Positions 49,502-61,046 of a DNA stretch of 64,000 bases are shown piece by piece. Below the pieces are notes generated by a model. The model saw nothing but the letters and a program-made list of their open reading frames with translations. It had not been told where the DNA came from and did not search any database. Made by a program: the position numbers and the translations under genes. Positions within the stretch are counted from its first letter, which is position 1. Every line of letters starts with the position of its first letter. The stretch is from an uncultured Chloroflexia bacterium (GTDB lineage Bacteria > Chloroflexota > Anaerolineae > JAAYZQ01), in assembly GCA_963700285.1 (NCBI GenBank), contig CAVOXA010000001.1, forward strand, positions 352,001 to 416,000, written 5' to 3'.

Positions 49502-50566
49502 TCACCCCTGGCGCCAGCGTTCTAGAATGACATAATGGCTGCGGAAAGCGATCATTCCCAGGGGCGGCAGTTCGGTGGGTGAAAACCAGCGGGCAGTGGC
49601 TGCGTCATCGCCGGGCTTCAGGGTCCCGCTTGTTGCCTGTGCCTTATAGATCAGGTTGATCCCGGGTCCGCGGAAATCTTGCGTGTAGTGAGTTGCTTCC
49701 AATAGCTCGAGGCTGGCCACGATTAAGCCTGTCTCTTCTGTACACTCCCGGATGGCCGCGGCCTCGGGCGCCTCGTCCCATTCGACAAAGCCAGCGGGCA
49801 GGCACCATTGGCCCAAGCCTGGCTCGATGGCCCGCTGGACAAGCACTACCTGCCCGCCGCGTTCCACCAATACCGAGACCCCGACTTTCGGATCGCGAAA
49901 ATGGACAAAGCCACAGACCGGGCACACAGGCCGTTGCCGGCCAAAAGCCAGGTGTTTTTCCAATGGATGGGCGCAATGGGGGCAACAGCGCAGCGGCGCT
50001 CCCGGCTGCCAGCGGTCAAGGGTCTGGCTTCGCCAGGCATGGATGGCGCGTGCGTGGCCGCCGCCACACAAGGGTGCTGGCAACTGCTCCGGTGCATAGA
50101 AGCCGGCGGCAGAGATCTCTGGGCTCGTGCCGCCCCTGCGCAGCCTGCCGCCTACGACTTGGGCTTCATAGACTACCAGCAGGCCGTTGCCCCGCGGGTC
50201 ATCGTCAAAGTAGTAGACATCGACCAGGCGACCCACCTGAACCTGGAGGCCGCTTTCCTCGGCTGCCTCGCGCGCAGCGGCGACGGGCGGAGGCTCATCG
50301 GCCTCACAGTAGCCGGCGGGCAGGTTCCAGCTTCCGGGGAAGGCCTTGCTCTCCGGCGAGCGTTGTACCAGGAGCAACGCGCCTTCGTGTTCGACCAGTA
50401 CACCGGCGCCGACCTTGAGCTGTTGGTAGGCGATATGGCCACATGCCGGGCAGACCGGCCGCAGCCGGCCATCGAGTTGCTGCTCTATCAGCTTGGTACC
50501 ACACTGGCTACAGTACAATCCCAGTCTCCCAGATACCTGCCCGCAGGGATGCTGGCTATCTGCCAC
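49502..50566 (-). CDS. Tandem zinc-ribbon Nudix hydrolase (two Zn-ribbon plus Nudix units)
   Basis: CSQC..CPAC with G.....E.......REAAEE.G; CPHC..CPVC with G.....E.......RECTEE.G. Confidence 0.88.
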   Translation of the reverse strand: MADSQHPCGQVSGRLGLYCSQCGTKLIEQQLDGRLRPVCPACGHIAYQQLKVGAGVLVEHEGALLLVQRSPESKAFPGSWNLPAGYCEADEPPPVAAAREAAEESGLQVQVGRLVDVYYFDDDPRGNGLLVVYEAQVVGGRLRRGGTSPEISAAGFYAPEQLPAPLCGGGHARAIHAWRSQTLDRWQPGAPLRCCPHCAHPLEKHLAFGRQRPVCPVCGFVHFRDPKVGVSVLVERGGQVVLVQRAIEPGLGQWCLPAGFVEWDEAPEAAAIRECTEETGLIVASLELLEATHYTQDFRGPGINLIYKAQATSGTLKPGDDAATARWFSPTELPPLGMIAFRSHYVILERWRQG

Positions 50567-50828
50567 ATCTGTTTCCCTCGCGACCGAGGTGCAGGGGATT
50601 GTACCACAGGTCCTTGCAGAACCCAAGCAATGAGTCCCATGTACCAACTCAGGTTTATGGGAGGCGGGCCGTGCGCTACCGATGCCTGCTAGCCTCGGAC
50701 CACGGTCCAGCACTCCAGAGCATTTCACCTCCTGAGCCTGGTACGAGTGAATTGGCCAGCTTCTTCCAGATTCGCTGGCATAGGGTCAACTCACGGCGTG
50801 TCTCTACTGGCCATTCACCTTTTGAGGC

Positions 50829-51974
50829 TCACGGCAGATCCCGGCAGTTCCCGCTGCCGGCCTGGATCGAGTGGTCCGGATTGGCGACGAGGATGCACAT
50901 CTGTGATGCGTTTGCGGGGCGGTCCGCTACACCATACTCTGTGAAGGGGCTCGTGCCGCCATAGACGATCCAGGGGCCGCTGCCAGGGACGCCGGCTTCC
51001 CCCTGAGGCACCGTGTCAAAAAAGAAGTGCACGTGCTGTCCCGGAAGCTGCGGCTCGAATCCCAAAGTCTCAAAGTCTACCACATAGCCTTCGCCCTGTA
51101 TGGAAATGCTGTTGATGCGCGCGGATTCGGGTTGCAGGGCAATTTCAAAACTCCACATCCAGACTACATTGCTGCCGTTGTAGGGGTTGATGTCGATGGT
51201 GACGGTGTGCAGGCCGTTGGTAATCTGCGCGCCTCCTGGCCAGTGAGCATCGTACTCAGCCAGGGATAGTACGTCGCAGTCTGGCTCGCCCCCGCCAAAT
51301 ACGCAATAGCCGGCGTTGTTTTCGGTCCTTTCGTGAACCGGGTTGCCGTTTGGGTCGAGGATGGTAAAGGTGACATTTTCGATGCCGTCGCCGTCGTTCG
51401 TGCCGACATTGGCATCGAACACCTCGGCCTGAAAGACGATCCGGTCACGGTAGACCATGGGCTCTGTGGCTTCGCCCGGCGAATAGCCCGGCAGGGTGAC
51501 ATTGCGCCCGTCCTTCACCGGGTGGTTGTTGCGGATATTCGGTACGTCACCGCCGCCTCCGTCCACTGGCAGGACTGCGATCAAGACCGGTGTTGGGCTA
51601 GGTGGCGGGGGTGGTGGGGTGTCAGAAGGATCCGGTGGCGGTGCTTCTGTCGCGGCTGGCTGCTGTACGTCCGTGACTGCCGGAACAGGGGTCAGGGTCG
51701 GTGATGGGGATGTATCCTTCGGCGCGGCTGCCGCCAGTGTGGGTGTGTCCTCGGGTGGTGGTGCTTCTGCCGGCGCGGCTGCCGTTAGGGTGGGTATGGG
51801 TTCGGGCGGTGGTACGGCTGCGGTCAGTGTGGCCGCGACTGCCAGGTCTTCGGCCACGCGCGTGGCGACGCGATCTGCTTCTGGCTCATCCGCCGGGGAT
51901 GATCCACCGCAGGCTACCACCAAGAGCCCGGTCAGAATCAGGCTGAAAACCAGGAACGATCTGTGCTTTGTCAT
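50829..51974 (-). CDS. Lipoprotein with Pro/Thr/Ala linker and two Cys-containing extracellular domains
   Basis: Lipobox LVVAC; long P/T/A tract; YCVFGGGEPDC; HVHFFF...MC.LVANPDHS..GNC; AGGAG RBS overlapping the upstream stop. Confidence 0.85.
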   Translation of the reverse strand: MTKHRSFLVFSLILTGLLVVACGGSSPADEPEADRVATRVAEDLAVAATLTAAVPPPEPIPTLTAAAPAEAPPPEDTPTLAAAAPKDTSPSPTLTPVPAVTDVQQPAATEAPPPDPSDTPPPPPPSPTPVLIAVLPVDGGGGDVPNIRNNHPVKDGRNVTLPGYSPGEATEPMVYRDRIVFQAEVFDANVGTNDGDGIENVTFTILDPNGNPVHERTENNAGYCVFGGGEPDCDVLSLAEYDAHWPGGAQITNGLHTVTIDINPYNGSNVVWMWSFEIALQPESARINSISIQGEGYVVDFETLGFEPQLPGQHVHFFFDTVPQGEAGVPGSGPWIVYGGTSPFTEYGVADRPANASQMCILVANPDHSIQAGSGNCRDLP

Positions 51975-51976
51975 GT

Positions 51977-53530
51977 TCACTCTCCTGCCAATGCCAGTAG
52001 CGCTTCTTCTACGTACCTATCCAGAGGTACGCACGAATCGGCAATGATCGCCGATCTGAGGATCTCGTCTTCGGGCGCCCGTCCTTCCTGGTCAATGCAG
52101 CCAGCGAAGGACTCGCGCGCGTGTTCGTATGCCGTCCGGCTGCCCGCCACATCCCCCCGCTTGCGCTGTATCTCGGCCTGTTGGGTGTAGGCTGCGCCCA
52201 ATGCCTGGTAGGCTTGGGCCAATATCCGGTATTGCTCTGCTTCGGCCAGGGGGTCCAGGACAGGGACGATCTCGCTGATGGCCAGGTCAAAGAACTGGTT
52301 GGCTTGTACGTCTTCTTGGAGCCAGAAAAAGGTCTCGCCCTGCAGGCGGTAGGCGCTGGCCAGTGCAAGACGGGCTATGATCTCAATGAGTGGCTCGTGG
52401 GATAGCTGGGCCAACTCCAGCCCCCTCTGATAGCTGGCGATTACCGCATCCATGCGCCCGCTTAACGCTTGCACCTCCTCCACCCGGAGGGGACTCTGGG
52501 GAGCGTGCAGCAGCTTCTCGATCCTGCGGAATTCCACCCCGGCCAAAACGATCTGAGCCCGGGCATAGTTAGGATCGATCTCCAGTGCTTTCTCCAGGGC
52601 CTCTTCGGCTTCATCAGGACGGTCCAGGAACAGTGCAGATCGCCCGATCCAGAAAAAGAGGATCTCTTTGCCCTCTCCTTGTTCCCTCCAGTTTGGCAAA
52701 CCTGTCTCCGCTTGCCGAAAGATGGACAGTGCGCTCTCTGACCGTCCCAGAAGATCTTCTCGGAGCCCCAGGAGCAACTGGAACAGAGCGCTGGCGCGCG
52801 TTGCCACCTGGCTGCCCAGCGCCTCCTTGGCCAGCGTATCGGCGCTATTGAAGTGCGCTGGGATCCGGACCGGATCGCCCAATTGGTAGCGGCCGATGGT
52901 CACGTTGGCCTCGCCCCGGACGCGGGGTCTCACATAGAACTCTAGCACCAATTCCGCCGGGCTCTGAGGGGGAGTCAGATGGCCATAGATGACGACGTCC
53001 GCGTCGATCTCACTGGCCAGTTCGCTGGCTGCTTCAGCCCTGGCCTCCGGCGTCTTGCCAGACATCATGCCCAGCTTCACGCGCTTTTCCAGCAACGACA
53101 TGCTGTCGTGCCAGATCTCCACGCCGCTCTCCGCCCGCTGGTCGTTGGCCGCCGTCAGCTCATCATAGATCCATTTGCTGAAAAGTTCGCCATCTTCTGA
53201 GCGACGCATCTGACCATCTGCGCCTATTTCTCCGATCTCGGTCACGGCCACGTTAAAGCGGGCGTCCATCCTGGCAGGTCCAGCAAAGTTTAGGGCAACA
53301 AAGACCAGGGCACCAACCACCACGGCCAGCAAGCCCAACAGCGGTACCGTTGGGATCTTTAGGGTGCCGATCTTGATGATGTTCTTGCCGATGACAACGT
53401 CCCGGGCCCCCTCGCCGACGTAGGCCGCGATCACATCCCGGCGTTTGTCGCGTTGAAGAATATCTCCCAGGGTCCGCCGCAGCCAGCCCTGCCCCTTGAC
53501 CTTGTCAGAGCCCGATGCATCGTCGCTCAT
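51977..53530 (-). CDS. Single-pass membrane protein: short N-terminal motif, TM helix, alpha/beta domain (CsgG/TolB-N-like), TPR array
   Basis: TM LLGLLAVVVGALVFVALNF; RFNVAV..ADVVIYG; TPR AEEALEKALEIDPNYARA and LAQAYQALGAAY. Confidence 0.8.
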   Translation of the reverse strand: MSDDASGSDKVKGQGWLRRTLGDILQRDKRRDVIAAYVGEGARDVVIGKNIIKIGTLKIPTVPLLGLLAVVVGALVFVALNFAGPARMDARFNVAVTEIGEIGADGQMRRSEDGELFSKWIYDELTAANDQRAESGVEIWHDSMSLLEKRVKLGMMSGKTPEARAEAASELASEIDADVVIYGHLTPPQSPAELVLEFYVRPRVRGEANVTIGRYQLGDPVRIPAHFNSADTLAKEALGSQVATRASALFQLLLGLREDLLGRSESALSIFRQAETGLPNWREQGEGKEILFFWIGRSALFLDRPDEAEEALEKALEIDPNYARAQIVLAGVEFRRIEKLLHAPQSPLRVEEVQALSGRMDAVIASYQRGLELAQLSHEPLIEIIARLALASAYRLQGETFFWLQEDVQANQFFDLAISEIVPVLDPLAEAEQYRILAQAYQALGAAYTQQAEIQRKRGDVAGSRTAYEHARESFAGCIDQEGRAPEDEILRSAIIADSCVPLDRYVEEALLALAGE

Positions 53531-53593
53531 GGTACCAGCCGGCTCGTTTGGCCAGCAAGGAGTCTGTTCATTCTCCGCCCTGTTGCCATGGAC

Positions 53594-55219
53594 CTATCCT
53601 CTTGCTCCAAAGCGATTCTTTGCCCACTCCACTGCTTCGTCTCCGGCCTCTCCCATCGCTCTGCCTACGGCCGGAGCGGCGAATAGCCGCCGGATGGCCT
53701 CGGTGAGTTGGGGCACGTTGTCAAGAAGCCAGTCACCCACCTGTACGATGGTATTGGCGCTGGGCTTGCTGCCGTCTCCCGCTTTGACCAGTTCTCCCCG
53801 CAGCAGCTTTAACTGGAACTCGGCCATCATGGTCACCTGGGGATCAAGCTCCGTTCCGAGCCGCCGAAAGGAGGCTTCTGTTTGGGCAAACTGTTTTTCG
53901 ATACTCTGGCCATCGTCGGCGCTGGGCTTGCCCAGAATGATGGTGATCTCCTTGCCAATTGTCGTCTGCTGGGCGCCTGCTCCCGCAAAACCAATGATCA
54001 CATCCCCTGCGCTCTGGACCGAGATGCCCTCCCACCAGGGCTGCTCTCTTTCGTCTGCCACCTGATTCTCCTCCCTGGCTGCCATTTGCCATAGGATGCC
54101 ATCTGTGGAGCGCATGAACAGCACAGGCGTTCCCCACTCGTGTTCGTTCCCCTGCCGGTAGATGGCTTTGCGCGCTTCCGCCAGGGCGGCGTCGACCGGA
54201 TAACCATCTGCCAGAGCCAGGTAAAACTCGTGGGCCAGGATCTTGGCAGCGCCGTCCGTGATCGGAGACTGCATGGCAACCACCGCGGGGATCCCCTTTT
54301 GCACCAGCGTCTGTGCTGTTCCAGCGAATGGACCGCTATGGGAACCGCGTGCTCCTTCACAAGCGTTCAGGACGGCCAGCCGCAGTGAGGGCTCGTCGTG
54401 CAGCAGGGTTCCCAGCACCTGGCTGCTGACCAGATGACTGGCCCCGGCGCCATCCTCCAGGACGAGCAGACCATCCTGGGTCTGCTCGTCAAAGGCGCCG
54501 TGGCCCATAAAGTGAAAAATGTGGTACTTGCCCTGGCGCAACTGCTTCTGTAGTTCAGCCAGTGTCGCTGTGTCCAGCCGGTGCAACAGGACCTGCCCTT
54601 GGGCTTTCAGGTCCGCCAGGGCTTTGTTGAGTTTGGCCCACTCCTCTTCAACGTCCAGCGGAGGCTGATCTTTGGGCGCCGAGATCATGACCAGCACGTG
54701 GAGCGGCGGCTCTGTGGCCATTGGCTCCTGGCGCTGGAGTACATCCAGGTAGCGCACGACCGGGCTTTGAGTGGACAAGCTCAGGAATTGGTTGTGAGCG
54801 GGATCGTAGAAAAGTTCCCAGGGCAGCTTGGCCAGCTCTGGTACGTCCGTCAGCAGCAAACGGATGCGCAATCCATCCGCGCCCTGCCGGGCAGTCTCAT
54901 CCTGGCTTCTTCGCAGAAAGCTCAGGACCTCGCCATGGAACACGGCCTCAAAAAGGTACTTCCCCAAGGCACGGGGATCCAGGGGGATGGCCGGCTGGGG
55001 AGCAGGCACGGGCGTTGCTGGGACCAGTCTTCTGTGATCAGATACCGGCTGTCGTGGTTCCGACCCTGAGGCTCGAAGCACCTTCTGTTCGGAAAGAGAA
55101 ATGCGGCTGCTTGCTCCACCCTGTACCGGCGAGTCGATGACGAGCGAGCGGTAACTACCCTCCCAGGGCTCGATGCGAAGGTCAAAGTTCAGATAAATTG
55201 GCGGCTCTGTAGACAGCAT
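53594..55219 (-). CDS. CHAT (caspase-like) protease with C-terminal motif and helical domain
   Basis: LPWE, HIFHFMGHG (His), VLNACEG (Cys), AVVAMQ, FY..L..G, W..PVL; extra C-terminal region of about 165 aa. Confidence 0.9.
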   Translation of the reverse strand: MLSTEPPIYLNFDLRIEPWEGSYRSLVIDSPVQGGASSRISLSEQKVLRASGSEPRQPVSDHRRLVPATPVPAPQPAIPLDPRALGKYLFEAVFHGEVLSFLRRSQDETARQGADGLRIRLLLTDVPELAKLPWELFYDPAHNQFLSLSTQSPVVRYLDVLQRQEPMATEPPLHVLVMISAPKDQPPLDVEEEWAKLNKALADLKAQGQVLLHRLDTATLAELQKQLRQGKYHIFHFMGHGAFDEQTQDGLLVLEDGAGASHLVSSQVLGTLLHDEPSLRLAVLNACEGARGSHSGPFAGTAQTLVQKGIPAVVAMQSPITDGAAKILAHEFYLALADGYPVDAALAEARKAIYRQGNEHEWGTPVLFMRSTDGILWQMAAREENQVADEREQPWWEGISVQSAGDVIIGFAGAGAQQTTIGKEITIILGKPSADDGQSIEKQFAQTEASFRRLGTELDPQVTMMAEFQLKLLRGELVKAGDGSKPSANTIVQVGDWLLDNVPQLTEAIRRLFAAPAVGRAMGEAGDEAVEWAKNRFGARG

Positions 55220-55292
55220 GCTTGCTCCCTTGGTCAGCAGATCGGTGGGGTGGGCCCCTGCCTCCAGGGCGTGGCTGCGATTCAGGACGATG

Positions 55293-55378
55293 ATTCTATG
55301 GCCTGCCCCGATTTACGCCAACATCATACATTAATATGGGCTATTTGTCAAATTAAAATGATATTAAATCGAAAACTG
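55293..55378 (-). promoter_or_regulatory. Tandem sigma70 promoters with AT-rich UP-like tract driving the CHAT operon
   Basis: Minus strand TTGACA (55351-55346), 17 nt, TATGAT (55328-55323); TTGGCG (55321-55316), 17 nt, TAGAAT (55298-55293); AT-rich 55352-55378. Confidence 0.75.
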
Positions 55379-56356: not shown

Positions 56357-58913
56357 CTACGCGGACGTCTCCTCGGCCAACCGGGCGCGCACCTGGACCA
56401 GGACCTCGCCCCACGGTTCTGCCAGTGGATGTCTGATTTCCCGCACAAAGGCAACAGCCTGCTCGAGGAGGGGCAGCGCTTCAGCGAAAGCTCCCTGTTG
56501 GGCCAGCCAGGTGCCGAGGGCCCAGTTGATGTTTGTCTGGCCCACGCGGTCGCCCACTTGCTGGTAGAGCGTCAGGGAGGCACCATACGTTTCGAGCGCT
56601 TCCTGTACCTCTCCCTGCGCCAGGTAGAGACTCCCCAGGGCCTGCAGGGTGTTGGCCTCGCCCAGGCGGTCGCCGACGGCGCGGAAGAGTTGGAGGGCCT
56701 GTTGGTAGCTGTCCAGGGCGTCGTCGTTCGTCGCGGAACTGCTGGACGTCGCCGATGGCCTGCAGGGTGTTGGCCTCGCCCAGGCGGTCGCCGACGGCGC
56801 GGAAGAGTTGGAGGGCCTGTTGGTAGCTGTCCAGGGCGTCGTCGCGTTCGTCGCGGAACTGCTGGACGTCGCCGATGGCCTTCAGGGTGTTGGCCTCAGC
56901 CCCGGCGTCTCCAGCGCGCCGGGCGGCGGCGGACGCGCGCCGCAGGCGGTCCACGCCCTCCTCGGGCCAATCGAGGAGCATGTACAGGTTGTGCAGGGAG
57001 CCCACCAGCCGGGCGGCCTGGGCGGCGCTTTCGCCTTCCTGGGTTAGCCCCCAATCGGCGAAGGCGTGCAGGTTGGGCAGCTCGGTCAGCGCCATGGCCA
57101 GGCTAAATCCCGACGCATGGCTCAGCGGTATCTCACCCAGTTTTTCTATCACCTGCGCATAGTGGGCAACAGCAGCGGGCCCGTAACATTCCCAGGCATC
57201 GGCCGGCAGGCGGCGCTCGGCGTAGGCCCGGGCCGGGCCAGGCAGGCGCACCCGGCTGTCTCCCGCTGCCTCCACTAGGCTGGCCGCCCGGAGCCGGGCC
57301 ACCAGGGACACCGCCGCTGGCCCCAGAACCGCGCGGACCGCTGCCTCGTCTGCCCCGCCGGGAAAGAGGGCCAGCAGGGCAAAAACCTCCGCCGCCTCCG
57401 GGTCGGTCTTTGCCAGATGACTATGCGATAGGGAGAGGGAAACGTCGACGCTGTCCAGCTTGTCGCGCGCCTCGGGCGGCAGGCCGGGCTCGGCCAAAAG
57501 CTGCTCCCTTTCCGCTTCCAGGCGCCGACGCAGCTCGGCCAGAGAATAGCCGGCCAGCAGGGGCGCGGCCAGTACCAGGGCCAACGGCCAGCCGTCGAGG
57601 AAGTTGAGCACCGCAACCAGGTCGTCCTGCTCCCCCCCAAGGTCCCATCCCGCCAGATCAGCCTCCCGCAGAAAGAGCAGGCGGGACTCGTCGGGGGCCA
57701 GGCGGCCGAGGTCTTGGTACCTGGCCGGCGGGCGACGGCCCAGGCGCTCGCGGCTGGTCAAGAGCAGGTGGCAGCCCCTGGACCCACTCAGCGCGGAACC
57801 GCCGGCCTGGCACAGGGCGCTGAGCAGATCGCGCAAGCTCCGCTGGCTGTGGCGCGCGGCCTGGTCCAGATCATCCACGATGAGCAATCGCTCGCCGCTG
57901 GCCAGGGCCGCAGCCAGGTCGACATTGGAGGCCGCCGCCTTGGGATGGAGCCCGGCCGCCTCGGCCATCCGGGCCCGGACCAGGCTCAGGTCGGAAACAC
58001 CACGCAGATCGACCCAGCCGATGCCCGCCGGATAGTTGCCCCGGGCAGCCAGCCACCGGCCGGCCTCGCGGGCCAGCTCTGTCTTGCCCATGCCGCCCAT
58101 CCCCATCAGTACCGTCAGGCGGTTTCCCAGCACGTTGCCCACCAGCTTGTGCAGTTCCCGCTGGCGGCCGGTAAAGGTCTCCGGCCGGACGCCTAGAAGG
58201 TGGGGCGATGGGGGTGGAATGCAGCGGGCCACGTCTCCGGCCGGCAAGCCCGGCGGAAAGAGGGGGGCGCTGTGCTTGCCCCCGTCCTCGGGCGCGGGCA
58301 GCAGGCGGAACTTGAGCGCTTCCCGCCCGGCCAGGCCCGCGCGGGCCAGGTCAGGCTGGGTGCGAACGGCGGTCTGGCCCAGGCCAAAGGCGGCGGCCAC
58401 GCTCTGGCCAGCCAGCAGCGCGGCATAGAAGGCGCGGGCAAAGGCTGCTGCCGCCAGATCGACTACCGGCTCGTCCTCGTCCACAGCCACCACGTGGGGC
58501 ACGCCCGCGGCCAGCAACGCCGCGGCCAATCCCGCCGAATGGCAGGCGCTGAGAAAGGCCAGCTCAAAGGCCAGTTCTCCACCAGGACAGACCAACGCCG
58601 CCAGTTGGCCGCCCGGCAGGGGGTGCAGGCCGCCGCGCCCGTCCTCAAAAGCCAGGGCCTCCGGGTGGCCGTGGCCCGTATAGTGTAGGACGCTGTAGCG
58701 GCGGTGCAGCAGCGCGCGCTGCAGCCGGTCCGTCTCGGCCCACTCGACATAGAGGTCGACGGCCCGGCCTGGCTCGCGCAGCCAGCGCTCCAGGCCGTCC
58801 AGCTCGCCGGCCACATCCAAAAGGTCCACTGGCCTGCCCTGCAAGTCCACCAGTGGCGCGGAAACCAGGGCCAGGATGGCCGGGGGAATGGCTGCCGGGG
58901 GGGGCATGGTCAT
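56357..58913 (-). CDS. CHAT-NB-ARC(STAND)-TPR protein, 2-nt deletion frameshift near 56724
   Basis: VLHYTGHG and FLSACHS dyad; FTGRQREL, GMGGMGKT, LIVDDLD, LTSR, GWPLAL; TPRs continue in frame into ORF 56357-56557 after the frameshift. Confidence 0.88.
56625..56897 (-). repeat. Near-identical 120-bp (40-aa) tandem TPR repeats
   Basis: EANTL.AIGDVQQFRDERDDALDSYQQALQLFRAVGDRLG twice plus the start of a third; one copy is 118 bp. Confidence 0.88.
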
Positions 58914-59716
58914 GTTTCTACAGCCTCCAATCGGTGCTGCACCTCCCGCGCCCGGGATTCCAGGTTGTCATCGGCCAGGCCACCGAGGAGGGGCAGGGCC
59001 TCTGCCAGCCGTTGCCTGGCGGCCTGGGGCCGGTAGGTCGCCTGGTACAGCGCCGCCAGTTCCACCAGCAGGTCGGCTCGGGCGCGTTGCTCCATACGGC
59101 CATCGCCCAGGCTGCGATAGTCGGCCAACAGGCTCTCCAGCACGCGGATCTGCTCTTCGGCCTGGGTCCGGGCTGGCGCCTCGACCGGGCCGGCGCCGTA
59201 GGCCCACTGCGGCGAAAAATCAAAGCTTCCGCTGCGCCAGGCCCAAAAGTCCGGCGCGCCCTGGGCCAGGCGGATCAGGGCGGCGTTGGACAGCCAGAAG
59301 ACCAGGGCACAGGGCAGATCTCGATAGTTTTCCCGGGCCAAGTTGAGTTGGCTCAACAGGGGGGGCTGGTTCACACCGGGTGACAGGACCTCTTCCAGAC
59401 CGCAGACGTGGATACAGGCCGGCCTCTTGCCAGCCTCCGCAATCCGGCAGACGGTTTTTAGGCCGGCCAGCAGGCCCGCCGCCGGCGGCACGACCTCCAA
59501 CCGCCGTGACCGGTAGCCCTGCCGGGCCAGCCGCTCCTCCATGAGGGCGATCAGGTCATCGCGCAGGGCTGGCTGGTCGCAGCAGGCGAAAAAGAGGGCA
59601 AACCCCTGGGCCAGCTCGATGGCCCGCTGCAGGTGCCCCATCGTTTCCAGGTTCTCAGCGCTCGGGGCTCCTGCAGCCTCAATCGGCGTCCGGGAGTCCG
59701 AGATTGCTTCGTTCAT
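58910..59716 (-). CDS. Degenerate ATPase-like partner protein (APDFW.WR motif) with short helical C-terminus
   Basis: FALFFACC, IHVCGLE, LN..RE, LVFWL, APDFWAWRS; no Walker A; overlaps both neighbours. Confidence 0.75.
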   Translation of the reverse strand: MNEAISDSRTPIEAAGAPSAENLETMGHLQRAIELAQGFALFFACCDQPALRDDLIALMEERLARQGYRSRRLEVVPPAAGLLAGLKTVCRIAEAGKRPACIHVCGLEEVLSPGVNQPPLLSQLNLARENYRDLPCALVFWLSNAALIRLAQGAPDFWAWRSGSFDFSPQWAYGAGPVEAPARTQAEEQIRVLESLLADYRSLGDGRMEQRARADLLVELAALYQATYRPQAARQRLAEALPLLGGLADDNLESRAREVQHRLEAVET

Positions 59717-61046
59717 CTTGCAGAGCCCTCTGGAACTTGGGTAGTTTGGTCACGGCCGGGTGGACGTCGTGCCAGGGCGGCGCACCGTTGACGTACTCTA
59801 GCACGCTCAGGTTATAGAGCATGAGCTGGTGGGCCTCGTCGTTCTGCACTGTTTTGAGCAGGTGCACCCTGGCCAACAGCGGGAAATGGCCCTCCGGGAC
59901 CATCCGGCTGTACTCGGCCACCAGCCGGGACTCGGCCCGCTGGACCACTCCCAGCGTGATGGGCCGCGGCCAGACGTCGCGCGGGGCGTAGGTGCAGGCA
60001 TAGCGGACCAGCAGCATCAGGTCCCGCGGGTGCCCTCCGCTGGCGCGGCAGAGGTCCTCCGCCGCCCCGGAATCGAAAAGCTTGCGCAGATCCATGCGCG
60101 AGGCCAGGATCTCCCGCAGATATCCCAGCCCCGGCGGGTACTCGCTGCCGTCCCGGTTTCTGACTTTGAGCATGGGCAGCACCTGGTAGTCGGGAAAGAT
60201 GGAGGTGACCGCCGTGGCCCGATCGGAGTACATGACCGAGATGGGTACCGTATAGACCAGGTGGCAGTGCAGGGCGCGCAATTGCTCGCCATGTTCTACG
60301 TACAGGGCGTGGTGGGTCGTGCGGCCATCGCCCAGGTCGCGGAACACGATGCGGTCCAGGTTGTCCACGAGCAGGACCAGGCCCCGTTGGCCCGCCTTGC
60401 GGATGCGGGCGTGGGCGGCGTCCAGCAGGTGGTTGAGGTTGGCGATGAGCTGCGAGATCTGGGGGTCCAACTTGCGGCGGATCTCGGTTTTGACGGCCCG
60501 GCCCGTCTTGATCTGGCCCGACACGCGGGCCATGAGGCGGGCGACGAGGGGCATCGACTCTGGCAGGCCGATGCCCAGTTGCGCCTCGGCCTCCAGCTCG
60601 CGGCCGATCTCGCGCCGCTGCTCCTCGCTGTAAAGCGTCTCGGCGAACCAGTCGGCCACGCTCTGGAGCAGGTCCTCGGGCAGACGGATGCCCTGGCCCT
60701 GCAGGTCGCCCGTGACCCGCCGGGCGATGCTCAGCAGCAGGTCGGTGTATTCCAGGTCGTTCAGGTCGAGGTCGTCGTCGGCCTGGAAGTAGAGGACGAC
60801 AAAGCCGGCCTCCACCAGCCGGGCCTGCAGGCGCAGCAACTCGGTGGACTTGCCCGAGCCCCGGTGCCCGGTAAAGAGTTGGGCCACGTGCACGTCGGAC
60901 CAGGTAATGGCGTTGAACATCTGGGACACCACGTCCTCGTCGCCGCGCACCGGGGTGCAATCGACGTAGCGCGGATCGCCGGGTGGGAGGGGCTGCACCG
61001 GATTCGACAGGTTGTAGGCATCGGTAATCGTGTGGGCTATTTTCAT
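59679..61046 (-). CDS. P-loop ATPase (KAP/ORC1/STAND-like)
   Basis: Walker A GHRGSGKS, Walker B LLVDNLDR, SGGHPRDL, C-terminal WHDVHP. Confidence 0.88.
   Translation of the reverse strand: MKIAHTITDAYNLSNPVQPLPPGDPRYVDCTPVRGDEDVVSQMFNAITWSDVHVAQLFTGHRGSGKSTELLRLQARLVEAGFVVLYFQADDDLDLNDLEYTDLLLSIARRVTGDLQGQGIRLPEDLLQSVADWFAETLYSEEQRREIGRELEAEAQLGIGLPESMPLVARLMARVSGQIKTGRAVKTEIRRKLDPQISQLIANLNHLLDAAHARIRKAGQRGLVLLVDNLDRIVFRDLGDGRTTHHALYVEHGEQLRALHCHLVYTVPISVMYSDRATAVTSIFPDYQVLPMLKVRNRDGSEYPPGLGYLREILASRMDLRKLFDSGAAEDLCRASGGHPRDLMLLVRYACTYAPRDVWPRPITLGVVQRAESRLVAEYSRMVPEGHFPLLARVHLLKTVQNDEAHQLMLYNLSVLEYVNGAPPWHDVHPAVTKLPKFQRALQDERSNLGLPDAD

Follow-up and report, generated by a model that had tools for sequence, protein, structure and literature searches.

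Amyloid signaling in bacteria, as described so far, begins from cytosolic sensors. In the available text of Dyrka et al. (10.1101/2020.01.06.895854), the bacterial amyloid signaling sequence (BASS) families BASS1-10 are NOD-like receptor (NLR)/effector pairs with a motif rich in G, N, Q, V and I and poor in P, L and K. BASS11, the Bab/Agp system, has a non-NLR, TPR-containing receptor with an N-terminal amyloid motif and has been reported with CHAT and EAD7 (10.1101/2024.11.07.622273, in its available sections). In addition, EAD-coupled conflict systems, EACC2-caspase proteins and caspase-transmembrane-extracellular architectures are described in the available portions of Kaur et al. 2020 (PMC7159879) and 2021 (PMC8195603). 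Here, we analyzed a 64,000-nt stretch (hereafter the window) of the genome of an uncultured Chloroflexia bacterium (GenBank assembly GCA_963700285.1, contig CAVOXA010000001.1, positions 352,001 to 416,000), with a focus on an operon of three co-oriented genes on the minus strand, which encode, in this order, a CHAT protein, a single-pass receptor and a lipoprotein. The first two carry a common 23-residue motif, and homotypic coupling between the receptor and its partner through this motif is very likely.

Shared motif and its pairing across loci

A preliminary description of the operon had placed the motif in residues 406-428 of the CHAT protein (nt 54004-53936) and residues 32-54 of the receptor (nt 53437-53369), and these coordinates and peptides proved exact, as did the ungapped identity of 11/23 between the two copies (BLASTP, E=0.005). 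No other alignment between the two proteins was found below E 5. A motif-only hidden Markov model (HMM), built from 52 motifs of other loci with the window left out and run on 64,085 six-frame open reading frames (ORFs) of the genome, placed the receptor at the top of the list (40.6 bits, E 5e-10), ahead of the CHAT protein (16.5 bits, E 0.018); the next match had an E value of 0.92. A partner-side profile searched against the 7-Mb genome matched the CHAT-protein C-terminus and the receptor motif only. Because both the profile and the motif HMM single out these two genes, the similarity is real and, within the genome, confined to this pair. The motif is enriched in I (3.5x), N (3.1x), V (2.3x), G (1.6x) and Q (1.4x) and depleted in P (0.01x) and L (0.08x), so that seven of eight residues shift in the BASS direction. 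Its D, G and G positions are 100% conserved and its K position 96-100% conserved on both sides, and the flanking regions diverge. Both copies are unstructured in the monomer models; the one in the CHAT protein is internal and followed by a 103-residue helical domain. The features of the operon are as follows.

55323-55351, minus strand: sigma70-like promoter match TTGACA-17-TATGAT upstream of the operon (consensus match)
53594-55219, minus strand: 541-aa CHAT protein, with an N-terminal alpha/beta extension, CHAT protease, shared motif and TCAD2-like helical domain
54140-54961, minus strand: CHAT domain (PF12770), residues 87-360
54502-54500 and 54361-54359, minus strand: CHAT dyad, His240 and Cys287, respectively
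53936-54004, minus strand: partner-side motif, CHAT-protein residues 406-428 (in the monomer model, low-confidence and lacking secondary structure)
53606-53914, minus strand: helical bundle, CHAT-protein residues 436-538, TCAD2-like by profile match, the constant companion of the motif
51977-53530, minus strand: single-pass receptor, 517 aa
53459-53491, minus strand: conserved Trp/Arg-rich helix ahead of the motif, receptor residues 14-24
53369-53437, minus strand: receptor-side motif, residues 32-54 (predicted local distance difference test, pLDDT, <50 over residues 21-45 of the monomer model)
53285-53350, minus strand: predicted transmembrane helix, receptor residues 61-82, N-terminus inside
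52883-53257, minus strand: predicted extracellular alpha/beta domain, receptor residues 92-216
51986-52837, minus strand: predicted extracellular TPR superhelix, receptor residues 232-515, with near-invariant Cys478/Cys500
50829-51980, minus strand: 383-aa lipoprotein, with a lipobox, a Pro/Thr/Ala-rich stalk and C-terminal domains with weak Ig-like leads

Pairing was assessed in loci reached via the receptor only (95 after 97% de-replication, of which 27 with <500 nt of upstream DNA were dropped), with five class labels and two partners, that of locus L113 among them, set by eye. An adjacent partner carrying the motif was found for 20/22 motif receptors and for 0/38 other receptors (0/10 CHAT-fused, 0/18 nSTAND1-fused, 0/7 EAD/other and 0/3 helical-tail); the counts were 16/18 vs 0/29 after 70% and 13/15 vs 0/18 after 50% de-replication. 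Fisher values for these contrasts are overstated because kin are not independent. Receptors with a GDVVGRD-type tail had an adjacent TCAD2-like partner in 3 of the 7 assessable cases. In the reciprocal search, 10/15 genome loci containing a partner have a motif receptor directly downstream (two of the ten repeat loci already in the collection), and the other five comprise one at a contig edge, one broken receptor remnant, two orphans and one chance match. Conservation and pairing in homologous loci, on which the preliminary description had made its interpretation depend, were thus observed in both directions. Moreover, the motif was detected in 0/24 all-in-one CHAT-receptor fusions. By these sequence comparisons, the motif accompanies receptors encoded apart from their cargo and is missing from single-chain forms, which is the pattern reported for BASS.

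The two motif copies also co-vary within loci. Among 29 pairs, motif identity is 0.58 within loci vs 0.51 between loci, and this excess persists at every de-replication level down to 11 loci (permutation p<=1e-4), with no within-locus excess in flanking controls or third codon positions. Recent gene conversion was not supported as the source (third-position identity 0.55 vs 0.53, p 0.22). Since drift after an ancient duplication predicts no excess and recent copying predicts synonymous identity, selection for matching appears to be the simplest reading, with old gene conversion as a possible source. A one-residue deletion is seen twice, on different branches, and both times it affects receptor and partner gene alike; the presence of Gly at motif position 5 agrees between the copies in 22/25.

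Receptor family, partner module and genomic surroundings

The receptor contains a single hydrophobic segment (residues ~61-82), the CHAT protein none. Its model comprises a helix (14-24), a disordered region (21-45), an alpha/beta domain (92-216) and a TPR superhelix (232-515), without an NTPase domain. The motif lies 6 residues from the transmembrane helix and, as previously noted, just before the only such helix; the accompanying view that it is essentially the whole cytoplasmic part has to be amended, as the Trp/Arg-rich helix, possibly a membrane-surface anchor, precedes it. A fold search with the receptor, in which the alpha/beta domain was not searched alone, returned TPR matches only, the best being LGN and Pins TPR (Z 19.6) and Rap/PlcR (Z 16-17).

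Ectodomain relatives (E<=0.001) were identified in 48/301 genomes of the class, many weaker ones being TPR-only, as well as in 70 database proteins and 80 metagenome loci retained out of 104 confirmed. The family is Anaerolineae-centered and patchily distributed, with no relative found in the one same-genus genome searched; locus scans using the single receptor protein as query gave no match in metagenomes or genomes. A search with the motif plus transmembrane region recovered three proteins and says nothing on other ectodomains. The family layout is a transmembrane helix followed by extracellular alpha/beta and TPR parts, usually with a lipoprotein gene next to it, and the segment before the transmembrane helix has been swapped repeatedly among a bare motif, CHAT (fused in 24/70 database homologs), nSTAND1, EAD7/EAD1, another small helical domain and a GDVVGRD-type repeat. 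On an unrooted FastTree tree of the ectodomain (99 rows), the motif label changes 14 times, at least 8 of them forced by starred branches, and the CHAT-fused label 8 times, at least 5 on starred branches; the smallest supported clade beyond the five rows closest to the window contains 10 fused and 8 motif receptors. The motif and fused states therefore alternate, as judged from the ectodomain sequences.

Further receptor tails were also noticed. An unnamed 70-aa helical tail with an ERE-AK-x-GG-x-AP-L word, which has no Pfam match, occurs in receptors P0026, P0031, P0033, P0035, P0045, P0057, L039, L056 and L059 and is a candidate new EAD-like adaptor. GDVVGRD-type repeat tails occur in L012, L014, L016, L037, L041, L044, L050, L058 and L070, and are a candidate second motif family.

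The recognized alternative tails (e.g., CHAT, nSTAND1 and EAD) are all cytoplasmic domain types. Because of this, and because the N-terminal side of the transmembrane helix is the more basic one in 33/33 motif receptors and two TPR-domain Cys residues hardly vary across the family, a topology with the N-terminus inside and the ectodomain outside is well supported as a prediction, in agreement with the cytoplasmic N-terminus proposed earlier. The third gene, whose start overlaps the receptor stop codon by 4 nt, encodes an N-terminal hydrophobic segment with lipobox VVAC. The lipoprotein, which had been considered a possible aid to the receptor, is a recurring component: by a strict pattern, a lipobox gene follows the receptor in 59/100 distinct receptor loci vs 7/335 control ORFs.

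On the partner side, the CHAT domain of the window protein is clear (E 5e-33; 115 bits vs a cut-off of 24), and its dyad, previously reported as intact, is indeed so (His240 in HFMGHG and Cys287 in LNACEG). The best matches of this domain are the CHAT domains of all-in-one CHAT-transmembrane-TPR proteins (61-63% identity). The pairing of the receptor with a motif-bearing effector was confirmed, but CHAT is not what defines the partner: what stays constant is a unit of a short Trp helix followed by the motif and a helical bundle of ~105 residues. CHAT is attached to this unit in 9/29 pairs, and the unit often stands alone or is joined to EAD7. In a cargo scan (E<=0.001) of 62 partner-module proteins, picked mostly for length from 150 representatives, we found 17 CHAT, 12 EAD7, 2 EAD1, 1 EAD8 and 1 C14 caspase.

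The helical domain of the window protein has no match at cut-off in Pfam, TCAD2 (PF19971) included, and a PDB sequence search with the helical family was empty. In a profile-profile search it matched an alignment headed by a TCAD2 sequence (probability 92%, E 6.7e-7), and TCAD2 was its third match in an atlas search. Fold searches with this domain returned generic helical bundles only (best Z 7.4), with no specific structural relative and no known pore-former among the matches. Named records of the partner gene are mostly from Anaerolineae and other Chloroflexota. The partner profile matched 25/401 genomes of the class and 3/401 of the phylum, and no partner relative was present among 151 pattern matches in viral contigs. 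Two candidates were rejected as chance matches, P0189 (20 profile matches; an Ig-repeat surface protein) and the proposed partner locus L143. In one locus (L048:2541-4955, plus strand), the partner gene is found downstream of the lipoprotein gene, with an apparent extracytoplasmic function (ECF) sigma and anti-sigma pair, identified by eye, coming after it. Loci L137, L139 and L142 contain orphan motif+helix genes, one of which includes CHAT, and, in an Actinomycetes-labeled record, a CHAT-motif-helix gene next to a broken receptor remnant.

Distant standalone motif+helix genes adjoin proteins with Walker A and TPR regions (weak NB-ARC/AAA matches) that have a related N-terminal motif (L174-L178 and L183). 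These STAND/TPR proteins, each of which neighbors such a standalone gene, seem to have a Pro-rich linker and a hydrophobic stretch, with PAN or Ig-like domains at the C-terminus, and by sequence they look like NLRs anchored in the membrane. The motif family thus occurs in NLR/partner pairs as well, the setting from which BASS motifs were first described. Clearly distinct motif types likewise match inside their own loci (L119, L088, L093 and L126). L119, L088 and L093 have CHAT, a longer Gly-rich repeat and a true TCAD2, paired with a receptor whose tail bears a matching IG-x-x-x-Q-(I/V)-G-Q type motif. L126 (789-2555, plus strand) contains a 150-aa helical ORF, Bell-like by eye with no support for that label in Pfam, NCBIfam or PDB, whose C-terminal Q-x-G-Q-V-F-G motif recurs in the N-terminal end of a distant receptor-family member. 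L184 (1774-5091, plus strand) encodes a DUF4062 protein with the helical domain, in which a longer duplicated segment is common to the N-terminus of the adjacent nSTAND3 gene.

As for the surroundings of the operon, the claim that it has promoters of its own corresponds to one upstream site, which agrees with the consensus at 11/12 letters (55351-55323); it is to be read as a consensus match only, because three such sites were found vs 1.1+/-1.2 in shuffles. Three metatranscriptome runs gave contigs of 151-263 nt with ~99% identity to parts of the CHAT and receptor genes, and such contigs cannot show transcription. A second conflict-type cluster lies 1.3 kb upstream (56481-61046, minus strand). 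In it, an unknown ORF and a STAND-like ATPase come before a gene that combines CHAT, STAND (weak NB-ARC/nSTAND1) and TPR regions. Its CHAT-STAND gene shifts frame within near-identical TPR repeats at ~56720 and runs on to ~56350, which may reflect an assembly error or slippage. Directly downstream of the operon (49502-50728, minus strand) is one ORF with a tandem zinc-ribbon/Nudix duplication.

Proposed mechanism and alternative explanations

Taken as a whole, the interpretation in the preliminary description is partly supported. We consider it on balance probable that the operon is a two-component transmembrane signaling device in which the motif acts as a templated beta-stack linking a surface receptor to a cytoplasmic CHAT protease. 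In the proposed sequence of events, the extracellular alpha/beta-TPR domain would bind a ligand and cluster, possibly with the lipoprotein as co-receptor or ligand presenter, and clustering would bring the disordered motifs beside the membrane into register as a short beta-stack. This seed would then recruit and convert the matching motif of the neighboring motif+TCAD2-like protein, and stacking would activate the cargo, here CHAT by induced proximity and elsewhere EAD7/EAD1/EAD8 adaptors, a C14 caspase or a bare helical domain. The output, the least supported step, would probably be a defense or death response.

Several observations weigh against this reading. Amyloid formation by the motif is a prediction from sequence, and fibrils and binding are inferred. 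Neither motif region matches any Pfam family at E<=1, RHIM (PF12721) and PP (PF17046) included; many receptor copies finish in IQIG or VQIG, a core-like word only. Lys is enriched 2.2x in the motif, BASS being Lys-poor, and the partner motif, unlike BASS/HRAM motifs, is not at the end of the effector but has a folded domain behind it. The STAND-side motifs score 4-16 bits on the motif HMM, the value for L177 being void because that N-terminus was translated out of frame. In the window, the CHAT-side motif is a weak variant (16.5 bits, with 5/59 relatives scoring as low), and the pair identity of 0.48 is under the between-locus mean of 0.51. Motif receptors L049 and L060 have no visible partner, downstream DNA being missing there, and the L137 and L139 partners have no receptor inside ~4-5 kb. 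Among six traits chosen by eye, Gly at motif position 13 agrees in 16/25 only, and an independent-pairs test yielded 3, 2, 2, 1, 1 and 4 pairs (p 0.25-1), falling short of significance because there are too few contrasts. Finally, PADLOC models recognized nothing more specific in the system than a generic resemblance to CHAT. A complex prediction with three copies each of CHAT-protein residues 390-541 and receptor residues 12-60 (score 0.09, mark 0.32) gave no verdict, as it ran without folded controls and differed from the calibration cases, and was counted neither way. With respect to the weak variant in the window, the CHAT-side motif has an aromatic residue at position 6, as in its receptor clade, and the variant is common to P0079 and P0087.

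The pairing, substitution and co-variation data would fit a finite homotypic contact equally well. The motif might thus form a finite beta-sheet or beta-roll dock, from dimer to tetramer, which tethers the partner constitutively and replaces a covalent linker, with conformational signaling and no polymerization; a membrane-bound motif 6 residues from the transmembrane helix would also leave limited room for long fibrils. We regard this explanation as unlikely, though the strongest of the alternatives, given that the composition and the NLR/partner context are those of motifs shown to be amyloid and that in-register stacking would require just such near-identical sequences in the two partners. 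A tandem second half-motif (two AIGK words) in the receptor tails of L031, L032, P0014, P0016 and P0017, reminiscent of two-layer pseudo-repeats, likewise argues for solenoid-like layers rather than a finite dock.

It is also conceivable, albeit improbable, that the coupling is real but the output regulatory, with CHAT cleaving a specific regulator (HetF/PatU3-like, or in the manner suggested for DdvA) and the unattached motif+helix proteins serving as adaptors or decoys. Such an output would suit the 20/29 pairs without CHAT, a helical domain that matches no known pore-former, the ECF sigma gene found by eye downstream in L048, and the resemblance of the window CHAT region to HetF, which is far under the cut-off (97.8 of 1200 bits); the Imd amyloid signaling described in the available text of PMC13506858 is non-lethal as well. 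The fusion partners (EAD1/7/8, nSTAND1, NB-ARC and C14 caspase) are typical of conflict systems, and the patchy distribution, with absence from the one same-genus genome searched, and the CHAT-STAND-TPR cluster just upstream point the same way, toward conflict.

That the motif is a mere relic, i.e., a Gly/Val/Ile-rich linker duplicated once between neighbors or occasionally copied without any interaction, is very unlikely: the segment is short and compositionally biased, related Gly-rich linkers are present in other Chloroflexota proteins and neighboring genes are inherited together, but the conserved D, G, G and K amid diverging flanks, a within-locus excess at the protein and not the synonymous level, the lack of the motif in all 24 fused forms and the different motif types matched within their own loci (L119/L088, L126) all speak against it.

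Comparison with known systems

The templated-stack reading places the operon near BASS1-10. As in BASS1-10, the receptor N-terminus and the product of a neighboring gene share a G/N/Q/V/I-rich motif of ~25 residues, CHAT is among the listed effectors and all-in-one fusions exist (10.1101/2020.01.06.895854, available text). In contrast to those families, the receptor here is a single-pass membrane protein without an NTPase, although sister loci with a related motif do have NLR receptors, and the motif stands before a TCAD2-like bundle and does not end a Bell-domain protein. The word 'transmembrane' does not occur in the text of that report. Motif sequences were compared with BASS1-10 by exact words, and the core words were not present among the deposited BASS sequences listed in the part of the PMC8086366 supplement that was available. 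By eye, the motif recalls BASS clusters C03 and C09, in part 1 of 241. On present tests the system appears to fall outside the named BASS families, because its receptor is not an NLR and its motif does not end the effector.

Bab/Agp (10.1101/2024.11.07.622273, available sections) resembles the present system in having a non-NLR TPR receptor with an N-terminal motif. By description, however, Agp is a cytosolic TPR-GreA/B-PIN protein that senses phage inside the cell, and Bab is a Bell-domain executioner. The NLR independence put forward in the preliminary description agrees with the NTPase-free receptor found here but is not in itself new. The EAD-coupled systems (PMC7159879, PMC8195603; available text) similarly duplicate a coupling module in adjacent genes, with closer similarity within a locus, and here EAD1/7/8 occur as alternative tails of receptors and as cargo of partners. 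An EAD is a folded and mostly helical domain, unlike the 23-residue, disordered, beta-prone motif of this operon, and the ectodomain/lipoprotein family was not found in the examined text of these two papers. DdvA (PMC11506125) and HetF (PMC9457339) also tie CHAT and TPR domains to the membrane in signaling. In DdvA, the TPR-CHAT part is outside and an anti-sigma domain inside, whereas here CHAT is cytoplasmic and separate, and the shared motif is in neither DdvA nor HetF, as far as the available text of these reports goes.

Therefore, NLR independence (Bab/Agp), CHAT or EAD7 as motif partners (BASS, BASS11) and caspase-transmembrane-extracellular proteins (Kaur et al.) are already known from the available parts of these sources. 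What appears to be new here, from sequence evidence, is the membrane receptor and a new motif family in BASS-type signaling; no bacterial transmembrane receptor with a paired amyloid-type motif was found in the literature searched, a search whose reach did not include figures, bioRxiv supplements or subscription papers. If the proposed mechanism is true, amyloid-type immune signaling in bacteria would extend to membrane receptors sensing the cell exterior, and bacteria would, like animals, convert an outside cue (predator, phage adsorption or, along a filament, contact with non-kin) into templated assembly and caspase-like proteolysis. Natural controls exist within the family, in the form of fused single-chain proteins, of separate pairs whose motif variants match, and of pairs that have or lack the protease, which make amyloid coupling as a substitute for a covalent link, partner specificity and the function of the TCAD2-like domain testable.

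We tentatively propose, as a bolder and somewhat doubtful extension, that this is an Anaerolineae counterpart of PGRP-LC/Imd and death-receptor signaling, in which surface receptors would pass an outside signal by nucleating amyloid, the new motif family they use would be shared with membrane-anchored NLRs, and one TCAD2-like adaptor would lead to interchangeable outputs (CHAT, C14 caspase and EAD networks), the bare adaptor possibly being a membrane-damaging executioner. In Drosophila PGRP-LC/Imd and shrimp SRB2/Imd (cRHIM; PMC10268257, PMC13506858, available text), the cytoplasmic amyloid motif of a transmembrane receptor seeds a partner that brings in a caspase, and the combination of a cytoplasmic motif on a single-pass receptor with a recruited partner is, by predicted topology, also present here. 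These animal systems have no detectable homology to the operon and use an adaptor chain (Imd-FADD-DREDD), unlike the motif and protease joined in one polypeptide here. By analogy of layout, in which they are closer than BASS, PGRP-LC/Imd and SRB2/Imd are the closest working analogy for this predicted receptor system.

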